Source of the DNA: a virus
Lineage: Duplodnaviria; Heunggongvirae; Uroviricota; Caudoviricetes
Direction: 5' to 3' (one strand)
Virus record (IMG/VR): IMGVR_UViG_2698536574_000031
DNA length: 38,122 nucleotides
Shown here: in pieces, positions 1-38,122 of the stretch
Position numbering within the stretch: position 1 is the stretch's first letter
Layout: each line of letters starts with the position of its first letter
Position numbers and translations under genes: made by a program
Notes under the pieces: model-generated
Told to the model about the DNA's origin: nothing
Database searches by the model: none
What the model saw: the letters and a program-made list of their open reading frames with translations, nothing else

Positions 1-1053
1 TTAAACTTCGTTTAACGCTTCCTGTATTCTTCGACCAATCCATTTCATGACCGGTACAGGCATTGAATTTCCAATGGCCTTATAACGATGAGCTGGAGAT
101 GAATTTTTCCATGGAATATCTGTATATCCATCGGGAAAACCTTGTAGCCTCTCGCATTCGGTTGGCGTCAACCTACGAACCCTTGAATATGGTGCTCTTT
201 CAACTATGAGCCCACCAGACATAGTCATGTCCTGGTTAGTTGTTCCGTTATAGCCAGCTATTACTGTGCCTGTTCGTTTTGGCAATGCTTCAAGGCAATA
301 TCGGTGCAATTTTCCTTCAATGCCTTGATCAAGAAGGGATTCGGATTTTTTCTTCTTTCCATAATAGTTTTTATCGCCCTGCGACACAGGCGGGAACTCA
401 AATAATACCTTTCCGGGATCGAGCCTTTTTCCAGCACTTGCCACAACAAACACTCTTCTGCGAGCCTGGGCGACTCCGAAATATTGGGCATCAAGTACTC
501 GCCAGGCGACGATACGCGATGGTCCAGACACAACACCAGCGTTTGCCCATCTTTTCCTTGCTGGCTGTAATGCGCAACCTGCTCCGGCCAGCGCACCAAG
601 AAAATGACCGAATGCATTGTCATGGCTACTTAAAACTCCTGTGACGTTTTCCCATACGATTATTGAGGGGGATTTATTGAGCGATGCCCGAACGGTATCT
701 ATCTGATTCGCCAGTTCAACAAAAGACAGTGTTAACTGCCCCCGTGGATCTGAAAGGCCTTTTCGTTTGCCTGACATACTGAATGCCTGACACGGAGTTC
801 CACCTACAAGAATATCTGGTGCTTCAATAAGCCCATCCCTGATACGAGGCGCAAGCAAAGCCATATCACCAAGATTTGGTATATGGGGCCAGCGATATGA
901 AAGAAGTGTTGACGGGAAGTCCTCTATTTCACTGAACCATCTGGCTTTCCAGCCAAGATTGCTCCAGGCTACTGTCGCAGCTTCAATACCACTGCATACT
1001 GAACCATAGGTTAGTGACTTATCAGACTGAAAGTAATGTTTCTTGTTCCCCAC
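1..1053 (-). CDS. DNA (cytosine-5)-methyltransferase, Dcm-like; complete, GTG start lying inside the 3' end of the upstream com-like ORF
   Basis: Translation carries C5-MTase motifs in canonical order: SVCSGIEA (motif I), GGTPCQAFSMSG (motif IV, PCQ), ENV (motif VI), QARRRVFVV (motif VIII), AIGNSMPVPV (motif X). Stop codon is at window positions 1..3. Confidence 0.85.
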   Translation of the reverse strand: MGNKKHYFQSDKSLTYGSVCSGIEAATVAWSNLGWKARWFSEIEDFPSTLLSYRWPHIPNLGDMALLAPRIRDGLIEAPDILVGGTPCQAFSMSGKRKGLSDPRGQLTLSFVELANQIDTVRASLNKSPSIIVWENVTGVLSSHDNAFGHFLGALAGAGCALQPARKRWANAGVVSGPSRIVAWRVLDAQYFGVAQARRRVFVVASAGKRLDPGKVLFEFPPVSQGDKNYYGKKKKSESLLDQGIEGKLHRYCLEALPKRTGTVIAGYNGTTNQDMTMSGGLIVERAPYSRVRRLTPTECERLQGFPDGYTDIPWKNSSPAHRYKAIGNSMPVPVMKWIGRRIQEALNEV

Positions 1054-1207
1054 GGCAGGATTTCCTTGTGTATGTGGGGTGCTCTGTGGCGCTCTGAGAT
1101 GTGATTTGATTGAGGGTTTTACAGCGCGGACATTTTACTTCCAGATAACTGAAACTGGCCCGTGCCAGTAGCTTATTGCAGTGTCGGCACCGTATGTTTC
1201 GATACAT
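1022..1207 (-). CDS. com: Com-like zinc-finger protein (putative translational activator of the downstream methyltransferase)
   Basis: 61-aa product MYRNIRCRHCNKLLARASFSYLEVKCPRCKTLNQ... has the CxxC...CPRC arrangement and size of phage Mu Com. Start taken at the internal ATG (1205..1207) preceded by GGAGG; ORF track extends to 1252. Its 3' end overlaps the MTase start by about 10 codons. Confidence 0.6.
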   Translation of the reverse strand: MYRNIRCRHCNKLLARASFSYLEVKCPRCKTLNQITSQSATEHPTYTRKSCRGEQETLLSV

Positions 1208-1407
1208 GGCCGCATAACCTCCTGCTTTGTTGTTGATGCCTTTCTCATGCAATCGATCGACAAAAACGATCGATTCGATTTGTTTAATTGATACAACAAA
1301 TAGATTTAAAAGTCATCAACAATGATTCAGGACGGTGATTATTTACTTAAAGAAAACGAAGAGTTAGGTGGTGAAAACGATCATAAAATGATCATTTTAT
1401 TGACTTT

Positions 1408-1578
1408 TTATCCAGTGAATCTTGGGGTACACAGGATCTGCATCGCTATCCACATTGCAGTGGTGAAGTTTCGATCCTGTAATGTATTTTCATCAAGTCC
1501 TGAACGTAGCGCATTGATAATTTCTGCGCTTAATATTTCCAGACCTTTGGTATCGGGCTGTTTTTTGTTCTTGTCCAT
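1408..1578 (-). CDS. small hypothetical protein (56 aa, below ORF-track cutoff)
   Basis: Hand-translated: MDKNKKQPDTKGLEILSAEIINALRSGLDENTLQDRNFTTAMWIAMQILCTPRFTG*. ATG preceded by GAGGAAATAATC; sits just downstream of a hairpin terminator. Confidence 0.3.
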   Translation of the reverse strand: MDKNKKQPDTKGLEILSAEIINALRSGLDENTLQDRNFTTAMWIAMQILCTPRFTG

Positions 1579-1611: not shown

Positions 1612-1646
1612 ATGAAAATCAAACCGACAGGAGAAGCTGTCGGTTT
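1612..1646 (-). terminator. rho-independent terminator-like hairpin after ORF 1653..1898
   Basis: 10-bp perfect stem AAACCGACAG / CTGTCGGTTT (1621..1646) with 6-nt loop, followed on the minus strand by GATTTTCAT. Confidence 0.45.
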
Positions 1647-1652
1647 GTATTG

Positions 1653-1898
1653 TTACATCATGGCACTGTCAGTTCCGGGCTGAACCGGCTCTGGTTGCTC
1701 TACTGGTTGAGGCTCATTTTCCGTGCTGTTTTCAGCCGGAGAACGACCAACCATTCGGGCCAGCACTTCATCAACATATGCGTCGATTTGTGCCTCAAAA
1801 TCCTTGCGAACCTGCGCCTTCAGCACGCGGTTCACTTCTTCAGAATAAAGTGCCTGTTTGACAAGCTCTTCAGTAACCGTGCCTTTAATCTCTGGCAT
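1653..1898 (-). CDS. hypothetical protein (81 aa, charged/helical)
   Basis: ORF with strong RBS (AAAGGAGAATATT before ATG); the antisense + ORF 1650..2027 has a TTG start, no RBS and a low-complexity product. Confidence 0.5.
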   Translation of the reverse strand: MPEIKGTVTEELVKQALYSEEVNRVLKAQVRKDFEAQIDAYVDEVLARMVGRSPAENSTENEPQPVEQPEPVQPGTDSAMM

Positions 1899-1933
1899 GA
1901 ATATTCTCCTTTTGCAGGTATATTGCCCCGTTA

Positions 1934-2116
1934 TCAGAGCGGGGTCGGGTCGTTTGGGGATGACGGTGCCTGTGCTGTTTTACTGAGTTTTTCAGCTGCC
2001 GCATCATCAATTTTACGGCGAATATAATTTCTGATGACCTTATAACCGCCGCTCACCAGATATAACGCACTGACCACAGCGCAGAAATAAAGCAGCATTG
2101 TATGAACGAATGTCAT
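1934..2116 (-). CDS. small membrane protein (60 aa, one N-terminal TM helix)
   Basis: Hydrophobic N-terminus MLLYFCAVVSALYLVSGG followed by a basic stretch; RBS-like AAAGGTAAGG upstream. Confidence 0.4.
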   Translation of the reverse strand: MTFVHTMLLYFCAVVSALYLVSGGYKVIRNYIRRKIDDAAAEKLSKTAQAPSSPNDPTPL

Positions 2117-2228
2117 ATAACCTTACCTTTGATATTGACTACATAATTCGTTATCGGGTAAAAACATCGAAGCGACTGATAACCACTCCTTCGGGAGTAT
2201 TTTTATTTTCCTTTATGGGTTAGGTAGC

Positions 2229-2264
2229 TCCCGCCAGCCATATCATGACCGGCGGGATTTTTTT
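2229..2264 (+). terminator. hairpin plus T7 tract oriented for the + strand, abutting the esterase stop codon
   Basis: Stem TCCCGCC / GGCGGGA with 15-nt loop followed by TTTTTTT on the + strand; an A-tract precedes it on the minus strand, so it may work bidirectionally. Confidence 0.35.
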
Positions 2265-4302
2265 ATTCTGTTACCGCTTTTTTCACTTCCACCACAATGC
2301 TGTCAATCAGCACCGGGTAAGTTGCATTTTTGGTGATATCCGTTACGCGGAGTTTGTCCACCGGGAAAGTTCCTACTGGTGACTGCGTCAGGGTAAACGC
2401 GGCACCATCCTGACCATCAATAACCGGAATAACCTGAAGGCTGTTATTTCCTGCAAAACGGAAGGCCAGCGTATGCCATTCATTATCAAATGCACCAAAG
2501 GTTCCCAGTTTCTGGTTATTTGTTGCCACTTTTGCATTGTGGTACATCACATTCAGGTCTTTTGCGTCTGTCTGGATGTAGAACGATGCCAGCAGATTAT
2601 TCCCTGCATCCCCTGTCAGGGTGACACCCTGCGGCAGAGAGGAAACCGGCCAGTAAAGCGCCATGACATACTGGTTTGCCACCAGGTCGCCAGGTACTTT
2701 AAAACGACAACTGATTAAACCACCATTTTTCAGCAGTTCAGCACCAGTACCGGCATCATGATCCAGATACCAGGATGATTTACCTGTTTCCTTGGTCAGT
2801 TTCATTGCCTTACCACCTGTGCCTCCTGCATCACTGATAATTTCAGCTTTACCGCCAGCCGGCTCCCAGCCCTGGGCTTTCAGATTTCCTTCTGACTCAC
2901 TGACACGGTAAGACAGCAGTGTTGTGGTTACTGCTTCAGTTTCTGAAGGTGATGGCACTGGTGCTTCAGTTTCAGAAGATGGAACATCGGCTTTTACTGT
3001 GGTTCGCCCTGCATGAGTCAGAACAGCCGTGGCCAGACGGTCAGAAATAATACCCCGGCGCGCCCAGGCACTGAAATGGCTGGCCCGGTCCGCAGATGTC
3101 CAGGTAGCGGCACTGTTACGCCACGTTGAGCCGTAATAACCAATGGATTCAATATCCGGGTCTTCTGCCGGATTGTTGGTGGGTACATTCACGCCATTTT
3201 CATCTGTCATTAATGGAACGAAATGAATGTTTTTATCTGTTTTGTTTTTGTAGCCGCCATAGATTGCCTGGTATGCTGGTTCATTTTTCTGTTTCCAGAA
3301 ATACGTGGTATCGCCACAAATCCACGGAACGCCAGCAGCACTGCCACCGGTACACTGTTCCGCCTGTTCAGCCAGGTCTGCGCGGAATTTTTCCACCATC
3401 GCCAGAAACAGCGCAGAATGCTCCGTCGGCTTCGCATCAATATCAAACTCGCCCTGCATCCACACCACAGCAAGCAGGCGGTTTTTCGGGTTCTTCGCCA
3501 GTGCCGCTTTTGTCCGGCTGATTAAGTCCTTATACAGCGGCTTATCCACACCCCAGCGGGCTGAGTCCTCTGAAGCACCCGTGCTGTCACTGTACGTGCC
3601 GTCAGCACCCACCGTGAATGCAGAACCACCACGGCAGCAGGGAACCAGCAGAATCCCCGCATCTGCCGGAATAAACGGCAGCAGTTTTTTGGCAATGTGA
3701 AGCCCCTGACCCACGGTGCCATATTGCCCTTTAGCCACATCCGCTTTCGGGTGATTTTTTCCACTCATATCCTGCACATCATGCAGACAGTGGTCGGCCA
3801 GAATGATGTCGTTATACTGACAGGCTTTACCTCCCGGCGTGACTGTACTGCGACGGGCTAACTGCATAATACGCGGTTCGGGGCGGTCATATGTCTCCGG
3901 CAGTGGCAGACCTTCACCGTAAGCCATACCGTTTGACTGACCAGCAAGAACCACCACGTAATACCAGGAAGGGGAGCCGGAAGCAGTTTCATTTCCTGAC
4001 GGACGGGTATGTGTTTCAGCATTATCCCAGTCTGACGGTTCAGCAGTACCGGCAACATCAGCACTTAACGGAATGACCGCACCAATACCCGCTCCGGTAA
4101 TTTCCACACTCGGATCACCGGATACTGGCCTTACCCACAGGCAATCCCGGGTATTAAAACTGATGAGACAGTCAGCAAATGTCATTCCTCCTTTTGTTTC
4201 GGCCGGAGGAAAGGGAGCCTCAAGAAATGCCGCTGTACCACCGGAAACTTTAACAGTAAAGTTTCCGGGCATTGATGATAGTTGAACCCATTTGGACGTC
4301 AT
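2263..4302 (-). CDS. SGNH-hydrolase esterase, sialate O-acetylesterase (NanS/SASA)-like, with N-terminal extension and C-terminal lectin-like domain (679 aa)
   Basis: VVLAGQSNGMAYGEG matches the GQSN block of SASA/DUF303 carbohydrate esterases; about 100-aa N-terminal region and about 200-aa C-terminal Gly/Thr-rich beta-type region; co-directional with the late genes. Confidence 0.65.
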   Translation of the reverse strand: MTSKWVQLSSMPGNFTVKVSGGTAAFLEAPFPPAETKGGMTFADCLISFNTRDCLWVRPVSGDPSVEITGAGIGAVIPLSADVAGTAEPSDWDNAETHTRPSGNETASGSPSWYYVVVLAGQSNGMAYGEGLPLPETYDRPEPRIMQLARRSTVTPGGKACQYNDIILADHCLHDVQDMSGKNHPKADVAKGQYGTVGQGLHIAKKLLPFIPADAGILLVPCCRGGSAFTVGADGTYSDSTGASEDSARWGVDKPLYKDLISRTKAALAKNPKNRLLAVVWMQGEFDIDAKPTEHSALFLAMVEKFRADLAEQAEQCTGGSAAGVPWICGDTTYFWKQKNEPAYQAIYGGYKNKTDKNIHFVPLMTDENGVNVPTNNPAEDPDIESIGYYGSTWRNSAATWTSADRASHFSAWARRGIISDRLATAVLTHAGRTTVKADVPSSETEAPVPSPSETEAVTTTLLSYRVSESEGNLKAQGWEPAGGKAEIISDAGGTGGKAMKLTKETGKSSWYLDHDAGTGAELLKNGGLISCRFKVPGDLVANQYVMALYWPVSSLPQGVTLTGDAGNNLLASFYIQTDAKDLNVMYHNAKVATNNQKLGTFGAFDNEWHTLAFRFAGNNSLQVIPVIDGQDGAAFTLTQSPVGTFPVDKLRVTDITKNATYPVLIDSIVVEVKKAVTE

Positions 4303-4401: not shown

Positions 4402-4962
4402 TTATTTTTCCGAAACGCTCGCAGGATAATAACGATAAAGGGTTGAAAGACCGATATCAAAAATAAGTGCCACCTGTCTTCGACTGACACCCCCGGCCAG
4501 TAAACGCCCGACCTGCTCGTATTGTTCCTGCGTGAGACGGCGGGGTCTGCCGCCGGTTCGTCCCCTTTCACGGGCAGCTGCAAGACCAGCCCGTGTCCGT
4601 TCGACAATTAATTCACGCTCCATTTCTGCCAGCGCACCCATTATGTGAAAAAAGAAGCGCCCCATGGGGGTTGACGTATCAATGTTGTCAGTAAGACTAC
4701 GAAAATTTATCCCCTGTTGCTGTAATTCATCTGTCAGCGCAACAAGGTGGCGCATACTGCGCCCCAGCCTGTCCAGTTTCCAGACCATCAGCGTGTCACC
4801 GGGTTTTAGTTTCTTCAGTGCCCGCTTCAGTCCCGGCCGCTGTGTCGTTTTACCACTCATTTTGTCTTCAAAAATCTGCTCACATCCTGCACATTCCAGC
4901 GCATTTCTTTGTAAACCGGTGTTCTGGTCATTTGTTGATACGCGTATATAGCCAATCAGCAT
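4402..4962 (-). CDS. gin: Gin/Hin/Cin/Pin-family serine DNA invertase
   Basis: MLIGYIRVSTNDQNTGLQ... has the catalytic Ser at position 9-10 and a C-terminal HTH (GLSTLYRY), 186 aa; lies immediately outside a gix-like site. Confidence 0.9.
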   Translation of the reverse strand: MLIGYIRVSTNDQNTGLQRNALECAGCEQIFEDKMSGKTTQRPGLKRALKKLKPGDTLMVWKLDRLGRSMRHLVALTDELQQQGINFRSLTDNIDTSTPMGRFFFHIMGALAEMERELIVERTRAGLAAARERGRTGGRPRRLTQEQYEQVGRLLAGGVSRRQVALIFDIGLSTLYRYYPASVSEK

Positions 4963-5016
4963 GTATTTACCTTCCTTAAAAAGAGGTGGAAAAGCCTTTT
5001 AAAGCAGATATACGGC

Positions 5017-5042
5017 ATCCCTGAAACCTCGGTTTACGGGAT
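5017..5042. repeat. gix-like 26-bp invertase crossover site (gin-proximal)
   Basis: ATCCCTGAAACC TC GGTTTACGGGAT; its reverse complement shares a 17-bp core TCCCGTAAACCGAGGTT and central GA dinucleotide with the site at 6443..6468. Confidence 0.7.
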
Positions 5043-5396
5043 ACGGTAAACAGGGCCGCGAATGCCCTGCCATCAAACGGTACTGCTGTTGCAGCAAGCA
5101 GGCTGGCAAATGCCCGCAGAATCAATGGTGTCGCCTTTGACGGCACGCAGGATATAGACATTACGTCAGGAATGCCGGAATCAACGGCCAATCAGCGTTA
5201 TGTTACAGGGGTAAGACTGGGAGCGCAGGCATTAAGCGGCGGACTGGAATATAATTACTCCCTGTCATCAGGAAATGTGATTACCGGTTTTAAGACTGAC
5301 GGAGACTGGGAAATGCGTGGTGGTGATGACCGTGTTTATTACAGACAGATACAATATTGTATTAATGGGCATTGGGTATCCGCTGCAAGTATTTAA
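5025..5396 (+). CDS. alternative tail-fibre C-terminal cassette (S'v-like; no own start, would fuse to the constant S N-terminus after inversion)
   Basis: Open frame from the gix site: NLGLRDTVNRAANALPSNGTAVAASRLANARRINGVAFDGTQDIDITSGMPESTANQRYVTGVRLGAQ...YYRQIQYCINGHWVSAASI, homologous to the C-terminal 126 aa of the expressed fibre. Confidence 0.6.
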   Translation, partial: NLGLRDTVNRAANALPSNGTAVAASRLANARRINGVAFDGTQDIDITSGMPESTANQRYVTGVRLGAQALSGGLEYNYSLSSGNVITGFKTDGDWEMRGGDDRVYYRQIQYCINGHWVSAASI

Positions 5397-6456
5397 TTAA
5401 CGGGGGCATAGCACACAGCAGCCAGCATCTGAAATATGCGTTATTTCAGACAAGCATTGCCTGTATATGGCGATAGTATTATTCCTGTTTTTATCATTGA
5501 TTTACATGGTGATGTTTATGCAACTGATTAATGTCAAACGATATTACCCGAAAGACAAACCCTATGGTGAGGATGTTCAGTATTTCCAGAGTGAGGACGG
5601 AAGGGATTTTTATGAATCTATCCCGCTTTTTACAAAGAAATACAAACTCTGTATTTCGCCTGTAACGGGTATTATCTGCTCTGTTGCTGAAGATGTCTCT
5701 GCTTTATATCCGGCAGGTTTTACTGTTGTTGAAGTGGACGAACTGCCGGAAGGTGTGAATATTGACGGTAACTGGCAGTTTTCTGATGGCCTGATATCAA
5801 AGGTGCCGGTAAACTGGAAGACGGTTGCTGAAAAGCGTCGCTCATCGCTGCTCCAGGAAGCCAACGAAACCGTGGATGACTGGAAAACAGAATTAAAACT
5901 GGACATGATTAGCGATGAAAATAAATTACAGCTGACGCGCTGGATGGCGTATATCCGACAGCTTAAAGAAATGCACTTTAATGATATTGCCAGTGAGGGG
6001 CATTACCAGGCGATTCCCTGGCCGGAAAAACCGGAATAATTCAGAGGGTGCATTCAGCACCCTTTTCTGTGGTTTACACTGAACTTACCGTTCTCCAGGC
6101 ATTATTAATATAAATCTGAACCGGGCGATAATAGACCCCACCGATATTGTCCGCAGACCGGGAGCCGGTTTCCTGCACGTTAATACCGGAAAGCATACAA
6201 CCGGAAGGTGCGCTGTAATTCCATGACATTTCATTGCCTCCGGGTGAATGATAGCTCTGTGCTCCAAGCTGAACATTCTGTACATACCGGCCATCTGCGG
6301 TTGACTGCGTCATTCCTGACGTGATGTTGATATCCAGCGTTCCGTCAAAAGGAACACCATTAATATTTCTTGGGGTGGCGAGTCTGTTTGCTGCCACGGC
6401 GGTTCCAGCCGATGGCAGGGCATCAGCAGCCTTATTTACCGTTTCCCGTAAACCGA
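5029..6456. other. Gin-invertible tail-fibre segment (G-segment analogue, about 1.43 kb)
   Basis: Bounded by the two inverted gix-like sites; carries two opposed tail-fibre C-terminal cassettes and one tail-fibre assembly gene; the crossover dinucleotide lies in the same codon phase (CTC, Leu) in both cassettes. Confidence 0.65.
5467..6039 (+). CDS. tail-fibre assembly chaperone (Tfa/U-like)
   Basis: 190-aa ORF inside the invertible segment, downstream of and co-directional with the silent cassette; C-terminus ...QAIPWPEKPE is typical of Tfa proteins. True start uncertain (ATGs at 5467, 5506, 5512, 5518; none with a clear SD). Confidence 0.6.
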   Translation: MAIVLFLFLSLIYMVMFMQLINVKRYYPKDKPYGEDVQYFQSEDGRDFYESIPLFTKKYKLCISPVTGIICSVAEDVSALYPAGFTVVEVDELPEGVNIDGNWQFSDGLISKVPVNWKTVAEKRRSSLLQEANETVDDWKTELKLDMISDENKLQLTRWMAYIRQLKEMHFNDIASEGHYQAIPWPEKPE

Positions 6457-6985
6457 GGTTATCGATAAAGGTTCCTTTGTCCTGGATATCCGCGCCATTC
6501 TGGTCCCTGCGCAGGTAACGGTTATCACCTTCGCTCCTGCTGTAAACATCCAGATTATTACGGGCGGTTTCCGCATTCTCCAGGTCGGCAAGGTTCTGAT
6601 CCTTCGCCAGGGCATTAACGTCAGCGGGACCAAGACTGTTTTTTGTGGCAAGCGTCCCCAGACCAAGATAACCACGGGCCAGACGCTGGGCTTCCGCACC
6701 GGCATCAGCAATTTCTTTCAGGTTGTTTTTCCGGGAAAAGGCATTCGCAGCGATAATGGCTTTAATGGACAGCGTAAGCTGGTTTAACTGCGCCTTATCC
6801 GGCTGAATACTGGCTTCAGCCAGAATATTCAGCAGTTCGGCCTGGAGAATATTCAGCCAGTCCTGACCAATCCAGCTGATACCTTTTTGTCCGTCACCTT
6901 CGGTAAACCAGGTGGTGGTATTACTCTGCGCCGGAGCCAGTTCAGGCATATTCGCCACGCCGGAATTATTATCAACATGGAACAT
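6074..6985 (-). CDS. tail fibre protein S (constant N-terminal part plus currently expressed variable C-terminal cassette)
   Basis: Start MFHVDNNSG... at an ATG overlapping the upstream stop (TAATG) with AGGAG upstream; the gix-like site lies at codon 177. Confidence 0.8.
   Translation of the reverse strand: MFHVDNNSGVANMPELAPAQSNTTTWFTEGDGQKGISWIGQDWLNILQAELLNILAEASIQPDKAQLNQLTLSIKAIIAANAFSRKNNLKEIADAGAEAQRLARGYLGLGTLATKNSLGPADVNALAKDQNLADLENAETARNNLDVYSRSEGDNRYLRRDQNGADIQDKGTFIDNLGLRETVNKAADALPSAGTAVAANRLATPRNINGVPFDGTLDINITSGMTQSTADGRYVQNVQLGAQSYHSPGGNEMSWNYSAPSGCMLSGINVQETGSRSADNIGGVYYRPVQIYINNAWRTVSSV
6443..6468. repeat. gix-like 26-bp invertase crossover site (inside the tail-fibre gene)
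   Basis: TTCCCGTAAACC GA GGTTATCGATAA, inverted relative to 5017..5042 and close to the Mu gix / Salmonella hix type. Confidence 0.7.
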
Positions 6986-7545
6986 TAAATATTCTCCTCT
7001 TTGTGACTGTTTGCATACACGTAAATAAACGTCTGCCATGCAGGCTTATAACGGTTCAGAATACATTCCAGCGCACCACCCTCATAAATACGCAGCGGGG
7101 TGAGAATATCATCCAGCACATTCATATTCCGGTAGCCGGTTTCACTGTTTATCGTGACAATACTGACCCACTGTGAATCCGGTGATGGCTGAATATCTAT
7201 TTCATAACCAAACTCTGCCGCAAACCGGATATAAAATTCACGGTTAAGAGAGGGTTTCATCCGGTATTTATTCCCTGCATAACGCTGACGTTCCTGAATG
7301 GTTGCGCCGGTCATATCACATTCCGGTAACCCCAGATAACGCTCCCAGTCTTCCAGCAGCAGACGGGATGAATCAGGAAAACGTTCTGCCAGCATCTGGT
7401 TACCGGTCCAGGAAACACGCTCCGTGGAATGACTGAGGCCCAGGCACAAAGCCGCAAGAACGGATGACGGCCGCTTATCCCATGCCAGCCCGTCAGGCAG
7501 CAACTGCAACAGGGCGCGCTGATGCGGGGTCAGGGTTACAGCCAT
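6985..7545 (-). CDS. tail/baseplate protein (Mu gp48/R-like)
   Basis: 186 aa; position and size match Mu R; translationally coupled to S. Confidence 0.55.
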   Translation of the reverse strand: MAVTLTPHQRALLQLLPDGLAWDKRPSSVLAALCLGLSHSTERVSWTGNQMLAERFPDSSRLLLEDWERYLGLPECDMTGATIQERQRYAGNKYRMKPSLNREFYIRFAAEFGYEIDIQPSPDSQWVSIVTINSETGYRNMNVLDDILTPLRIYEGGALECILNRYKPAWQTFIYVYANSHKEENI

Positions 7546-28377: not shown

Positions 28378-28803
28378 TCAGAAAAGTGGCGGTTGCGTTC
28401 TTGCCAGATGCAGACGGCGCTGTTCGCGTATGACGGTATAAATCTGGGTTTCTGACATCCGGTAATGGCGGCGAAGGGATTCAATTTTCTCGCCCCGGTC
28501 CCAGCGCGAAAATATCTCATTGTTTCGCAGCTCGGCAAAGAGAGATTCCCCGACAGGCAGGTAATAACCCCGTCCGCCCATATAGGCTGCCTGAGCCGCA
28601 GCCACCTTGCGTGCCAGTTTACCGGCCAGTACCGGCTCAATCCCCTGACGCTGAAGTTCTGCGCCGGTGACTTCAACCAGTTCTGACAGGGTCCGCGGCC
28701 AGTTCTTTTTGAGAACATCATCAGGGATGTCATCAAGGCGGTCGATAAGGGCGTGCAGTTGCTCACTGTCACCACCAAACATGCTCATCTGAGTTTCTGC
28801 CAT
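28378..28803 (-). CDS. Mor/C-family transcriptional activator (single copy; sits at the C position before lys)
   Basis: 141 aa; C-terminal HTH ...LRRHYRMSETQIYTVIREQRR and central YYLPVG block; preceded by a terminator. Confidence 0.7.
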   Translation of the reverse strand: MAETQMSMFGGDSEQLHALIDRLDDIPDDVLKKNWPRTLSELVEVTGAELQRQGIEPVLAGKLARKVAAAQAAYMGGRGYYLPVGESLFAELRNNEIFSRWDRGEKIESLRRHYRMSETQIYTVIREQRRLHLARTQPPLF

Positions 28804-36031: not shown

Positions 36032-38122
36032 TCAGGCCAGCGGGTCATTTTCTTTTAATTTCGCTTCCAGCAACTGCAATCCCCGCTGGAAATTACGCTC
36101 GTATTCTTCATCAGGTTCATCGTCAGCGACCGGTTGCTGAACGGTCACCGTATTACCCACAGGGCGGTATATGTTTTCCAGCCAGGGCTCCTGCGGCTTG
36201 TGCTCCAGCACGTTGACAACCTCATCCTCGGCATCACGGATTTTTTCCTCTGCGCGTTTACGCATGCCTTTAAGGCGTTGCTGCTGTTTGTAGTATTCCG
36301 CGCTAACCGGGAAGGCTTCGCGTTTATTACCGTCCCATACCGCCTCGCAAATCACGCTGCCATCCAGGCGACGTACGGTAATTCGTTCGGCATCATGAAT
36401 GTCATAGCTGATAAGCACCTTACGACCATGCTCGTCACGCAGCTCGGGCGCGTAGTAAATATTATTCAGCCAGCGTATTTCACAGCGTCTTACAGGGCGT
36501 TCCACCATCGGCCGGAACATATCCCGCAGCTCAACATCGGACAGCCATTCAATTTCCGTGTCCTCTTCCGCCAGGCGTTTTTTTCTGAACTCCGCCGGGC
36601 TGTAATGCTTGCCGTTCGGCTTCACCGGTAATTCATCGTGCGGCCGGTTGTTGTACCACTCAACACCGTCACGAATGGCATCAATCAGTTCAGACCAGGA
36701 CGGTAAATCACGCATCGCTGACTGCTGCCGGGCGTTCAGCCGTTTGCCCTGTTGCAGGGCAGTAAATGCCGAGCGTAAATCGCGGTTGGTTTTGCGTAAC
36801 GTCTCGCGATCTGCACCTTTCCCGAAATAGGTGCGGTATTTACGGGCTATGCGCATCGGTAATGTGCGGTTAAGCCGTTCGATAATGCCTCGTCCCTGCG
36901 GATTACCGGCAATCCCGGTCGGGTGATTAATCCCCAGTCGCGGCAGTATCCCCACAACCTCCTTATCCAGGATGTCGGCGGTTTCCCCGGAGCCGTTATC
37001 CGAGTAATACAGAAACGGTTTGCCGTGATGGCGAATGCCGTGCTGTATGGCACCGGCTACGGCGAAAACATTTTCAGCCAGGTCAAGGCTCCAGCCCACC
37101 ACAAAGCGCGTGCCACCGTCGATAACAAAGGTCACTTCCGGTGCAAATGGCCGACCGTGAACCGGGTGTGCGCATTTCATCTTCATGCCGTGACCGTCAC
37201 CAATCCAGACATAATTCACCGGCATTCTGGACCAGTCGCGGCGCGTGAATCCCTCAAGCTGACGGTATTCACTGCCTGTCACCCGGCCTTTTTGTTTCAC
37301 CACTTCCGGCAGTTTCTTCATTGCGCGGCGAATGGTGTCATAAGAGGGCATGATATCGAGCATATAAGGCTCATCAGCGTGCCGGAGCCGCCATTCAGCA
37401 ACAAAATCCTCGTAAGCCTCGGTCATTGGTCGGCCGTTTGACTGGCGATACTGCGCCAGAAATTCGGGCAGCCAGTTAATATCTTCGGCTTTTATTTCCT
37501 GGCGTTTACCCGGTGCCAGTAAAAGCAGGCGTTCAGCGGCGTTCTGTGCCTTGTTAAAGGCCGCAATCCATCGCTTCAGCGTGATTTCACTCAACGCACG
37601 GCTGTTTCCCTTTTTGGCGTTCGCCGTCTCAACCATTGCCACAATGCGCTCGTCCAGCTGTGAACGTGCCAGGTTGTCAACGATAAACCGGATAGCCTTC
37701 GCGCAGCTGAAACCGGGTTGTTGCGCGACTTTCATCACTTCGCTGACGATCGCGATTCGTGCATCAGCCACCTGGCGCTGGTTTTCAGTCAGGGCATTGA
37801 GGCGTTCGACCATCAGTTGTGGTGATCCGCGATATGCCTCCACCGCATCAACCACGTCAGATGAGCGTCTGGCCTTTGTCACCACCGGAGCCGGTGATTC
37901 ATCGGCTTTTTGCGTCATCAGTTGCAGGGCATAACGTTCACGTAATGCCTGCTGCGTCACTTCAGGTAAACAGTCGATGCTGTATTCAGTTGCTTTAGAG
38001 CCTGAGCGACGACGGGAACAACAGCTTTTCCCTTGTACGTAACGTTGTAATGCCTGGCGAATACCTTTTGTTGTAGCAGGCATTCCGGGCGCGCCAATCA
38101 GTTCTTTTGCAATGACATACAT
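36032..38122 (-). CDS. A: MuA-like DDE transposase; start codon at the window edge
   Basis: 696 aa; N-terminal end-binding region MYVIAKELIGAPGMPATTKGIRQALQ aligns with the recalled start of MuA; central retroviral-integrase-like catalytic core. Confidence 0.9.
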   Translation of the reverse strand: MYVIAKELIGAPGMPATTKGIRQALQRYVQGKSCCSRRRSGSKATEYSIDCLPEVTQQALRERYALQLMTQKADESPAPVVTKARRSSDVVDAVEAYRGSPQLMVERLNALTENQRQVADARIAIVSEVMKVAQQPGFSCAKAIRFIVDNLARSQLDERIVAMVETANAKKGNSRALSEITLKRWIAAFNKAQNAAERLLLLAPGKRQEIKAEDINWLPEFLAQYRQSNGRPMTEAYEDFVAEWRLRHADEPYMLDIMPSYDTIRRAMKKLPEVVKQKGRVTGSEYRQLEGFTRRDWSRMPVNYVWIGDGHGMKMKCAHPVHGRPFAPEVTFVIDGGTRFVVGWSLDLAENVFAVAGAIQHGIRHHGKPFLYYSDNGSGETADILDKEVVGILPRLGINHPTGIAGNPQGRGIIERLNRTLPMRIARKYRTYFGKGADRETLRKTNRDLRSAFTALQQGKRLNARQQSAMRDLPSWSELIDAIRDGVEWYNNRPHDELPVKPNGKHYSPAEFRKKRLAEEDTEIEWLSDVELRDMFRPMVERPVRRCEIRWLNNIYYAPELRDEHGRKVLISYDIHDAERITVRRLDGSVICEAVWDGNKREAFPVSAEYYKQQQRLKGMRKRAEEKIRDAEDEVVNVLEHKPQEPWLENIYRPVGNTVTVQQPVADDEPDEEYERNFQRGLQLLEAKLKENDPLA

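Follow-up and report, generated by a model that had tools for sequence, protein, structure and literature searches.

A C5 cytosine methyltransferase in the place of mom at the right end of a Mu-like Escherichia coli prophage

The right-end modification operon of a Mu-like (Sp18-type) prophage was analysed in IMG/VR record IMGVR_UViG_2698536574_000031, a stretch of 38,122 nucleotides (referred to throughout as the window) in which the prophage is stored in reverse orientation. In this operon the body of the DNA-modification gene mom has probably been replaced in frame by a C5 cytosine DNA methyltransferase under the control of Com, a small zinc-ribbon protein. The identities of the two genes, their overlap and position, the junctions of the exchange, the retention of the leader and the obligatory use of a GUG start codon were established by sequence comparison. 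The features concerned are as follows (aa, amino acids; ORF, open reading frame).

1207..1022, minus strand: com, 61 aa (ATG 1207-1205, TGA 1024-1022; PF10122)
1223-1218, minus strand: Shine-Dalgarno sequence AGGAGG of com, 10 nt upstream of the ATG at 1207, read from the sequence
1053..1, minus strand: C5 cytosine DNA methyltransferase, 350 aa (GTG 1053-1051, TAA 3-1; PF00145)
1037..1043, minus strand: left recombination junction, in codons 4-6 of the cargo ORF, placed by base-by-base comparison with loci L005 and L010

Exchange of the mom body for a methyltransferase

An initial annotation of the window had described a small CxxC...CPRC ORF as Com-like, with its 3' end overlapping the start of a complete Dcm-type C5 methyltransferase gene that begins with GTG within com. 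A profile search confirmed the small ORF as com: its product (MYRNIRCRHCNKLL...VKCPRCKTLN) matched the Pfam family PF10122 (Zn_ribbon_Com) with E=1e-12 and a score of 47.7 bits (cut-off 22.9). The cysteines of this protein are at positions 7, 10, 27 and 30 (CxxC-16-CPRC), those of the zinc ribbon of Mu Com being Cys6, 9, 26 and 29, and the alignment columns C7, C10, C26, P27, R28 and C29 were invariant in 12 diverse Coms. Identity to Mu Com was 52% over residues 3-45 (43 residues). The overlap of com with the methylase gene, 32 nt at 1022-1053, and the GTG at 1053-1051 inside the com frame were as described. The limit of 1252 given for the gene corresponds to an upstream TTG that opens the longest ORF (76 aa), whereas com itself is the 61-aa form starting at ATG 1207, which is also the form given by RefSeq in identical copies. 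In these copies (L005 and L006) the label of the gene in RefSeq, from the Prokaryotic Genome Annotation Pipeline (PGAP), is 'Com family DNA-binding transcriptional regulator'; since Mu Com is an RNA-binding translational activator, this label is a misnomer, and a systematic one. The RefSeq label of the second gene is 'DNA cytosine methyltransferase'.

The methylase matched PF00145 over profile positions 5-323 of 324 (E=1.6e-42, 146.6 bits) and TIGR00675 with 137 bits (cut-off 100.65). Alignment with M.HhaI located motifs IV (GGTPCQAFS), VI (WENV), VIII (AQARRRVF), IX (RRLTPTECERLQGFP) and X (AIGNSMPV), together with the RxLTPxECxRLQGFP block and GNS, and the enzyme is accordingly a complete C5 methyltransferase. 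The term 'Dcm-type' holds at the level of the superfamily but not beyond it: orthology with E. coli Dcm (CCWGG) was ruled out, the model NF007772 giving 40.5 bits against a cut-off of 710.

From residue 13/14 onward the catalytic body is 64-75% identical to free-standing C5 methylases, for example that of Pectobacterium phage ZF40, and ~47% identical to the C-terminal half of P1 Dmt, the nearest named E. coli relative. Nothing usable was found in the literature on the target specificity of the C5 half of P1 Dmt or of any close relative of the methylase. The free-standing enzymes of this 'YGSVCSGIEAA' subfamily, of which the relatives compared at the N-terminus are 66-75% identical, begin MTSKLTPLTYGSVCSG (MTSKLTP...) with an ATG and an N-terminus of their own and lie mid-genome, with neither com upstream nor a sequestering hairpin. 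The N-terminus of the window enzyme is MGNKKHYFQSDKSLTYGSVCSG, which marks it as an in-frame graft onto the first codons of mom. Between the methylase GUG and the S-adenosylmethionine motif (motif I) the reading frame contains no ATG, GTG or TTG, the next start being at codon 64, so that the methylase must use the regulated GUG of mom.

The two genes occupy the position of com-mom in Mu and form the operon nearest to the right end of a transposable phage. The window carries MuA, MuB, GemA, a Mor-family gene, lysozyme and a Gin-like invertase in Mu order, and it also has morphogenesis genes; the invertase is followed by three lambdoid-type genes, com and then the methylase, whose stop codon lies 164 bp from the prophage end in full-length copies (LC727881, NZ_CP045712).

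The distribution of the two cargos was determined in 5426 complete E. coli genomes. Window positions 1039-1400 (com and ~190 bp upstream) matched in 233 of them with ~98% identity; downstream of the matched com, Mom was annotated in 24 of the 30 matches listed and hypothetical proteins in the remainder. The methylase body was present in 10 of the 5426 genomes, at 11 distinct chromosomal sites and with 99.6-99.8% identity, always directly behind com. The Sp18-type com-mom prophages (Sp18 of O157 Sakai and those of Shiga toxin-producing E. coli, STEC) are essentially the same phage as that of the window: com and ~280 bp upstream are 98% identical, the upstream gene order is shared and identity over the final ~100 bp at the right end is 93%. 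They differ in their cargo, which is mom (PF25680) with a Com of 66 aa, as against the C5 methylase and a Com of 61 aa with another tail in the window. Com residues 1-55 are the same in both save for one substitution; the tail is ETLLSV here and KASHIPYHQHA in the com-mom siblings, the last six codons having been replaced by the swap.

Megablast homology to the com-mom prophages stops at 1039, and the left break is 11-17 nt into the cargo ORF. Identity with the com-mom relatives spans com, the RNA elements and 'GTGGGGAACA', and in comparison with one mom allele it reaches 'GTGGGGAACAAgAAaCA'. Homology resumes for the final ~101 bp of the prophage with 93% identity, which puts the right breakpoint ~100 bp from the end; the transposase end sites should lie in this final segment. 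Between the two breakpoints ~0.75 kb of mom body was replaced by ~1.1 kb, made up of the methylase plus a 3' spacer of 64 nt; the new sequence is limited to the enzyme body, this spacer and the last six com codons. Because the left break falls inside the ORF, the swap left in place the Com RNA site, the hairpin at the start codon, the Shine-Dalgarno sequence, the GUG and codons 1-4/5 (MGNK), and comparison of the junction with com-mom found the leader conserved up to the GUG and the first 4-5 codons. The cassette swap in the com-mom operon suggested by the initial annotation is borne out in this way by near-isogenic prophages with mom or the methylase, with both breakpoints mapped.

It is very improbable, in our estimation, that the methylase is an inactive hitch-hiker or the decaying, functionless remnant of an illegitimate recombination. 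The gene is rare (10 of the 233 com-bearing E. coli genomes) and its motif I is non-canonical, yet the ORF is full length in all ten E. coli carrier genomes and in a Citrobacter lineage that is only 68% identical, and the catalytic motifs are present in every copy. The Citrobacter version is likewise intact and fused to the leader at the same place. The elements with the methylase are found at 11 different loci, which indicates that they are still transposing.

The retained leader and probable control by Com

The RNA elements that precede the methylase are listed below.

1076..1094, minus strand: predicted Com RNA target GAGCGCCACAGAGCACCCC, counterpart of the Mu 19-mer GAAUGCCUGCGAGCAUCCC, with the CC(N3)GAG motif
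1048..1079, minus strand: predicted translation-inhibition hairpin composed of CCCCAC (1079-1074), a 20-nt loop and GUGGGG (1053-1048), which pairs the GUG and codon 2
1063..1067, minus strand: methylase Shine-Dalgarno sequence AAGGA, in the hairpin loop, where an inner stem pairs part of it

Mu Com is reported to bind the mRNA of mom and to switch on its translation (PMC6483171). The Mu target is a small hairpin with 5'-CC(N)2-3GAG-3' in its native 19-mer, and this hairpin adjoins a translation-inhibition structure with the mom GUG in its stem (PMC6483171). The leader of the window (1094-1048) has the corresponding order GAGCGCC-ACA-GAGCAC, CCCCAC, 20-nt loop and GUGGGG. When the region around the GTG was folded with RNAfold, the start codon was placed in the CCCCAC/GUGGGG stem, as a sequestering structure of the kind envisaged in the initial annotation; this stem, with the Shine-Dalgarno sequence in a small inner stem, was both the minimum free energy and the centroid structure in every context folded. 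The leaders of Mu, of the com-mom sibling and of the Citrobacter version were predicted by RNAfold to fold alike. Of the 3532 start-like triplets in the window, 20 (0.57%) have a perfect 6-bp stem that takes in the start codon, and the stem in question sits at the place homologous to the experimentally defined structure of Mu (CCCAC...GUGGG). Folding energy alone was dropped as evidence for the hairpin, its z-score of -1.39 not being exceptional. With the energy unremarkable, the case for the hairpin rests on homology and on the pattern of conservation.

That pattern was examined in 23 distinct leader variants from related loci. The stem arms and GCC/GAGC never change in this set, whereas the hairpin loop varies widely and the three bases between GCC and GAGC take eight forms (ACA, ATC, ATT, AGC, GCA, TCA, CGG and TGC). 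The GCC/GAGC bases were also invariant in a separate alignment (A1). Invariant GCC/GAGC with free middle bases is the pattern predicted by the motif from systematic evolution of ligands by exponential enrichment (SELEX). The outer pair 3-16 of the Com-site hairpin is A-U in Mu, G-C in the window and G-U in the locus L199.

The Com peptide EHPT (1074-1084) is encoded by GAGCAYCCCAC, which forms part of the Com RNA site and of the 5' arm of the hairpin. Its proline codon is CCC in every lineage, with no synonymous variant, so that the sequence of the Com protein seems to be dictated here by the RNA constraint.

The operon shares with com-mom of Mu the right-end position, a small four-cysteine Com overlapping the cargo, a GATC cluster upstream, a CC(N3)GAG site directly 5' of a GUG-pairing hairpin, a Shine-Dalgarno sequence in this hairpin and a cargo starting M-G. 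It differs in the cargo (Mom, PF25680, in Mu; a C5 methyltransferase, PF00145, here) and in the stem, which has 5 bp with an 11-nt loop in Mu and 6 bp with a 20-nt loop here; unlike Mu, the window has ~2.9 kb of lambdoid-type genes between gin and com. Work on the com-mom operon of Mu is said to include that of Hattman and that of Wulczyn and Kahmann.

Upstream of com the following features were located.

1251..1275: palindrome AATCGATCGACAAAAACGATCGATT, located 45-70 nt upstream of com and containing two Dam sites (GATC)
1255..1476: GATC-rich region, presumed to be the regulatory region of the operon, with 6 sites in 222 bp (window average, 1 per 318 bp)
1620..1647: strong bidirectional terminator-like hairpin (11 bp, GC-rich), directly after the DUF826 gene

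The terminator closes the upstream DUF826 gene, and the com operon therefore needs a promoter of its own. A scan of positions 1-2300 gave no sigma-70 consensus promoter, a result that fits an activator-dependent promoter like Pmom. The 1255..1476 region is 98% identical in the com-mom relatives. The double-GATC palindrome is also kept in the versions from Citrobacter and from P2-like phages. It resembles the group of GATC sites that in Mu lies upstream of Pmom, a weak promoter that needs the activator C and is repressed by OxyR at unmethylated GATC.

By analogy with Mu, the operon would be silent in the lysogen and transcribed late, in a C-dependent and Dam-sensitive manner. Com would then bind the CC-ACA-GAG hairpin, which immediately precedes the CCCCAC/GUGGGG stem, and open this stem, allowing ribosomes to start at the GUG. 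To judge from the enzyme family and the slot that it fills, the methylase would place 5-methylcytosine (m5C) on replicated phage DNA before packaging, and this may shield the phage from restriction enzymes that are blocked by m5C at the target sequence of the methylase. Since ectopic m5C does damage where the host has McrBC or McrA, tight control would be useful; more speculatively, such control might spare the lysogen McrBC/McrA damage, and the host restriction repertoire might maintain the polymorphism of mom and C5 cargos. We infer dependence on Com, methylation and an anti-restriction role from these parallels.

Several points weigh against this reading. Pair 4-15 of the Com-site hairpin is a C.A mismatch in the window lineage, for which RNAfold gives 2 bp only, and the hairpin is weaker than that of Mu. 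The start-codon hairpin has an energy of -13.7 kcal/mol (z = -1.39), and 22 of 200 shuffles fold as well. Ribosomes translating com cross this hairpin, so that plain translational coupling could contribute. The C-terminal tail of Com was altered by the swap; such a tail is dispensable for RNA binding but might be needed for RNA remodelling (PMC6483171). Two manual placements of a Pmom-like promoter, over the GATC palindrome and at ~1310-1345, were indistinguishable, and C and OxyR sites were not identified. Motif I of the methylase is VCSGIE/CSGIE instead of the canonical FxGxG, a variant common to all members of the subfamily, free-standing ones included, and no enzyme of the 'YGSVCSGIEAA' subfamily is known to us to have been proved active by biochemistry. 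Finally, m5C would make the phage a target of McrBC in certain hosts, and the net benefit would be host-dependent.

Some of these points bear on an alternative that accepts the swap but has the methylase expressed independently of RNA binding by Com, through translational coupling or leaky initiation, Com being a retained passenger. In its favour, the com reading frame spans the entire hairpin and ends 29 nt beyond the GUG; the modest stability of the hairpin, the mismatch in the Com site and the altered Com tail speak for it too. A passenger does not, however, readily account for a com gene that is intact and almost unchanged in every methylase carrier. Over lineages whose Coms are 45-65% identical, moreover, the CC(N3)GAG bases are invariant and the bases next to them differ, which argues for continued selection on the protein-RNA contact, and Mu Com is itself reported as a binder of mom mRNA and an activator of its translation (PMC6483171). 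On this balance the alternative is considered unlikely.

A further alternative accepts control by Com but assigns the methylase a role other than protection from restriction, such as a packaging or replication mark, epigenetic regulation or the countering of another defence. Orphan phage methylases can have such roles, for example methylation by P1 Dmt at pac sites (PMC12707154), and the C-terminal half of Dmt is the ~47% identical relative named above. Against this, the enzyme fills the exact slot and leader of Mom, an anti-restriction modifier, with which it alternates in near-isogenic prophages. The other cargos of the leader are also DNA modifiers, and the Hia5/Hin1523 class among them blocks many restriction enzymes (PMC3299994). 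A role of this other kind is regarded as rather improbable, and an in-frame replacement of mom by a methylase under Com control is retained as the probable reading.

Precedents and other cargos of the leader

The initial annotation implied that the idea of such a replacement was new. A Com homologue with an adenine methylase in place of mom had already been published for FluMu, Pnm1, Hia and B3 (PMC3299994), so that the idea is less new than was implied. The published modules are HI1522.1/Hin1523 of FluMu, Nma1821 of Pnm1, ComHia/Hia5 of H. aegyptius and ORF47/ORF48 of Pseudomonas phage B3, and putative Com sites were noted 5' of hin1523 (PMC3299994). These modules resemble the operon of the window in pairing a Com homologue with a downstream methyltransferase in the slot of mom, in having putative Com sites ahead of the methylase gene and in the logic proposed for them, a late protective methylation gated by Com. 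The enzymes of these modules are D12-class adenine methylases, some almost without sequence specificity, whereas that of the window is a C5-cytosine enzyme (PF00145). Unlike FluMu, Pnm1 and B3, the window case offers the donor and recipient states in near-isogenic phages and a junction placed to a few nucleotides. Studies of modules of the FluMu, Pnm1 and B3 type reportedly also include Braid 2004 and Morgan 2002.

No publication describing a pair of Com and a C5 methylase was found in literature searches. What is new is the C5 chemistry, the presence of both states in near-isogenic phages, the location of the fusion point to a few nucleotides and the use of one leader on three to four enzyme families.

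Cargos were surveyed in IMG/VR loci found with Com, typed with Pfam, and in annotated phages. The arrangement of com with an overlapping modification gene recurred in dozens of independent loci, with the following cargos.

Mom (PF25680): Sp18-type and Mu-type phages
C5 methylase of the window (PF00145): E. coli Mu-like prophages
Second C5 lineage (PF00145), 68% identical, com ~75%: includes Citrobacter braakii ATCC 51113
N6/N4 methylase (PF01555), one variant starting MGNNK: P2-like phages (Escherichia phage Chuche), Salmonella
D12 Dam-type methylases (PF02086): B3, L077, L193 and L194, with more distant Coms
Unrelated C5 methylase (PF00145), 29% identical to that of the window: metagenomic locus L198, with the Mu-type site AUGC-CGGCGA-GCAU

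In a neighbour-joining tree the com-linked C5 enzymes of the Citrobacter lineage were nearer to the free-standing enzymes (75%) than to that of the window (68%). The linker codons of both com-linked C5 lineages look homologous by eye, with a shared CAT..GATAA spacing. Two captures of a C5 gene and a single fusion followed by gene conversion are equally possible.

The P2-like phage Chuche (PP925824) has nearly the same leader as the window (GAGAGCC-ATC-GAGCAC-CCCAC...GUGGGG), and the MGNNK start of one variant recalls that of the window cargo. These P2-like modules differ from the window in their PF01555 enzyme, in being carried by an integrase-bearing phage and in an extra ATG 6 nt before the GUG in most copies. 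In B3 a perfect GCGC-CAUCGA-GCGC hairpin lies ~20 nt before the methylase ATG.

In the metagenomic locus L198 (IMGVR_UViG_3300007638_000182) a Com homologue with the Mu-type site AUGCCGGCGAGCAU overlaps a C5 methylase with a canonical FAGIGG motif I. The low identity of this enzyme to that of the window (29%) points to an independent pairing of Com with a C5 methylase.

Two further scans defined the reach of the survey. A leader-pattern scan of genome contigs, which is not a census, returned three loci (in Salmonella, Citrobacter braakii and a 'Vagococcus' contig), and the Citrobacter locus supplied a host for the second C5 lineage. The last of the three, L088 (NZ_JBQPOM010000071.1, 'Vagococcus sp. 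WN89Y'), carries an enterobacterial P2-like com and N6/N4 leader near-identical to the Salmonella and E. coli copies, and its assignment to Vagococcus is likely to reflect contamination or a mislabelled assembly. An alignment-based scan of IMG/VR for distant Coms, ranked by the first sequence, returned mostly close relatives, with ~10 new informative loci.

In different phages one and the same leader thus precedes enzymes of four families or more, so that the Com/hairpin leader behaves as a portable translational lock. A wider proposal, which we put forward tentatively and would not yet prefer to its negation, is that a ~50-nt leader with an 'MGN' start has been fused repeatedly, in frame and at the same few codons, to unrelated DNA-modifying enzymes in Mu-like and P2-like phages, namely to Mom, to C5 methylases from two or more lineages, to a beta-class N6/N4 methylase and to methylases of the Dam type, and that the varying restriction landscape of hosts, including McrBC with its penalty on m5C, maintains the polymorphism of mom and C5 cargos; as a sub-case of this proposal, the C5 enzyme could be of relaxed specificity and hypermethylate in the manner of Hia5.

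Surroundings of the operon and implications

The remaining features of the prophage to which reference is made are as follows.

38122..36032, minus strand: MuA, part of the Mu-order gene content of the window
28378-28803: Mor/C-family activator gene
5467-6039, plus strand: tail-fibre assembly gene, facing minus-strand tail-fibre ORFs
5025-5203 and 6282-6460: inverted repeats of 179 nt, 75% complementary
4402-4962: Gin-like resolvase/invertase
2263-4302, minus strand: SASA-esterase/DUF6645 protein, 679 aa, NanS-p-like
1934-2116, minus strand: DUF1378 gene
1653-1898, minus strand: DUF826 gene

The last three, on the minus strand at 1653-4302, are lambdoid/Stx-type genes between the Gin-like invertase and com, where Mu has none. 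They are a mosaic insertion into the Mu backbone that is common to the com-mom siblings. On the other side, the invertase, the tail-fibre genes and the inverted repeats make up a G-like segment (4402-7039) that is probably invertible. Between the terminator-like hairpin at 1620-1647 and com there is a 56-aa ORF (1408-1578, minus strand) with a good Shine-Dalgarno sequence (GAGGAAAT); it had no Pfam match, and in identical copies RefSeq calls a frameshifted hypothetical gene on the opposite strand of this region.

The window and many IMG/VR provirus contigs (L007-L043) terminate exactly at gene boundaries, namely the methylase stop and the MuA start. The window therefore lacks the true phage ends, with attR ~164 bp past base 1, and also the repressor and ner side. 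The same element has been annotated as a 'Mu-like phage' inserted within Stx phages of STEC CC119, and these elements have been compared with Sp18 of O157 Sakai (PMC10132054).

The exchange amounts to a natural swap experiment, in which one phage, with one promoter, one Com and one RNA switch, expresses Mom in some copies and a C5 methylase in others. The nucleotides needed by the Com switch are indicated by what was kept, everything up to GUG-GGG-AAC, and the exchange offers a test of whether control by Com and the hairpin is independent of the cargo. The range of Com-gated phage modifications is extended from adenine chemistry (momylation and N6-methyladenine) to m5C. Together with the N6/N4 and Dam-type versions, the findings also suggest that the Com leader may serve as a search handle for prophage DNA-modification genes that are silent, expressed late and probably toxic. 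STEC and other E. coli lysogens with the module could release virions with an unexpected methylation pattern, which would affect host range, restriction-based typing and methylation typing by nanopore sequencing.

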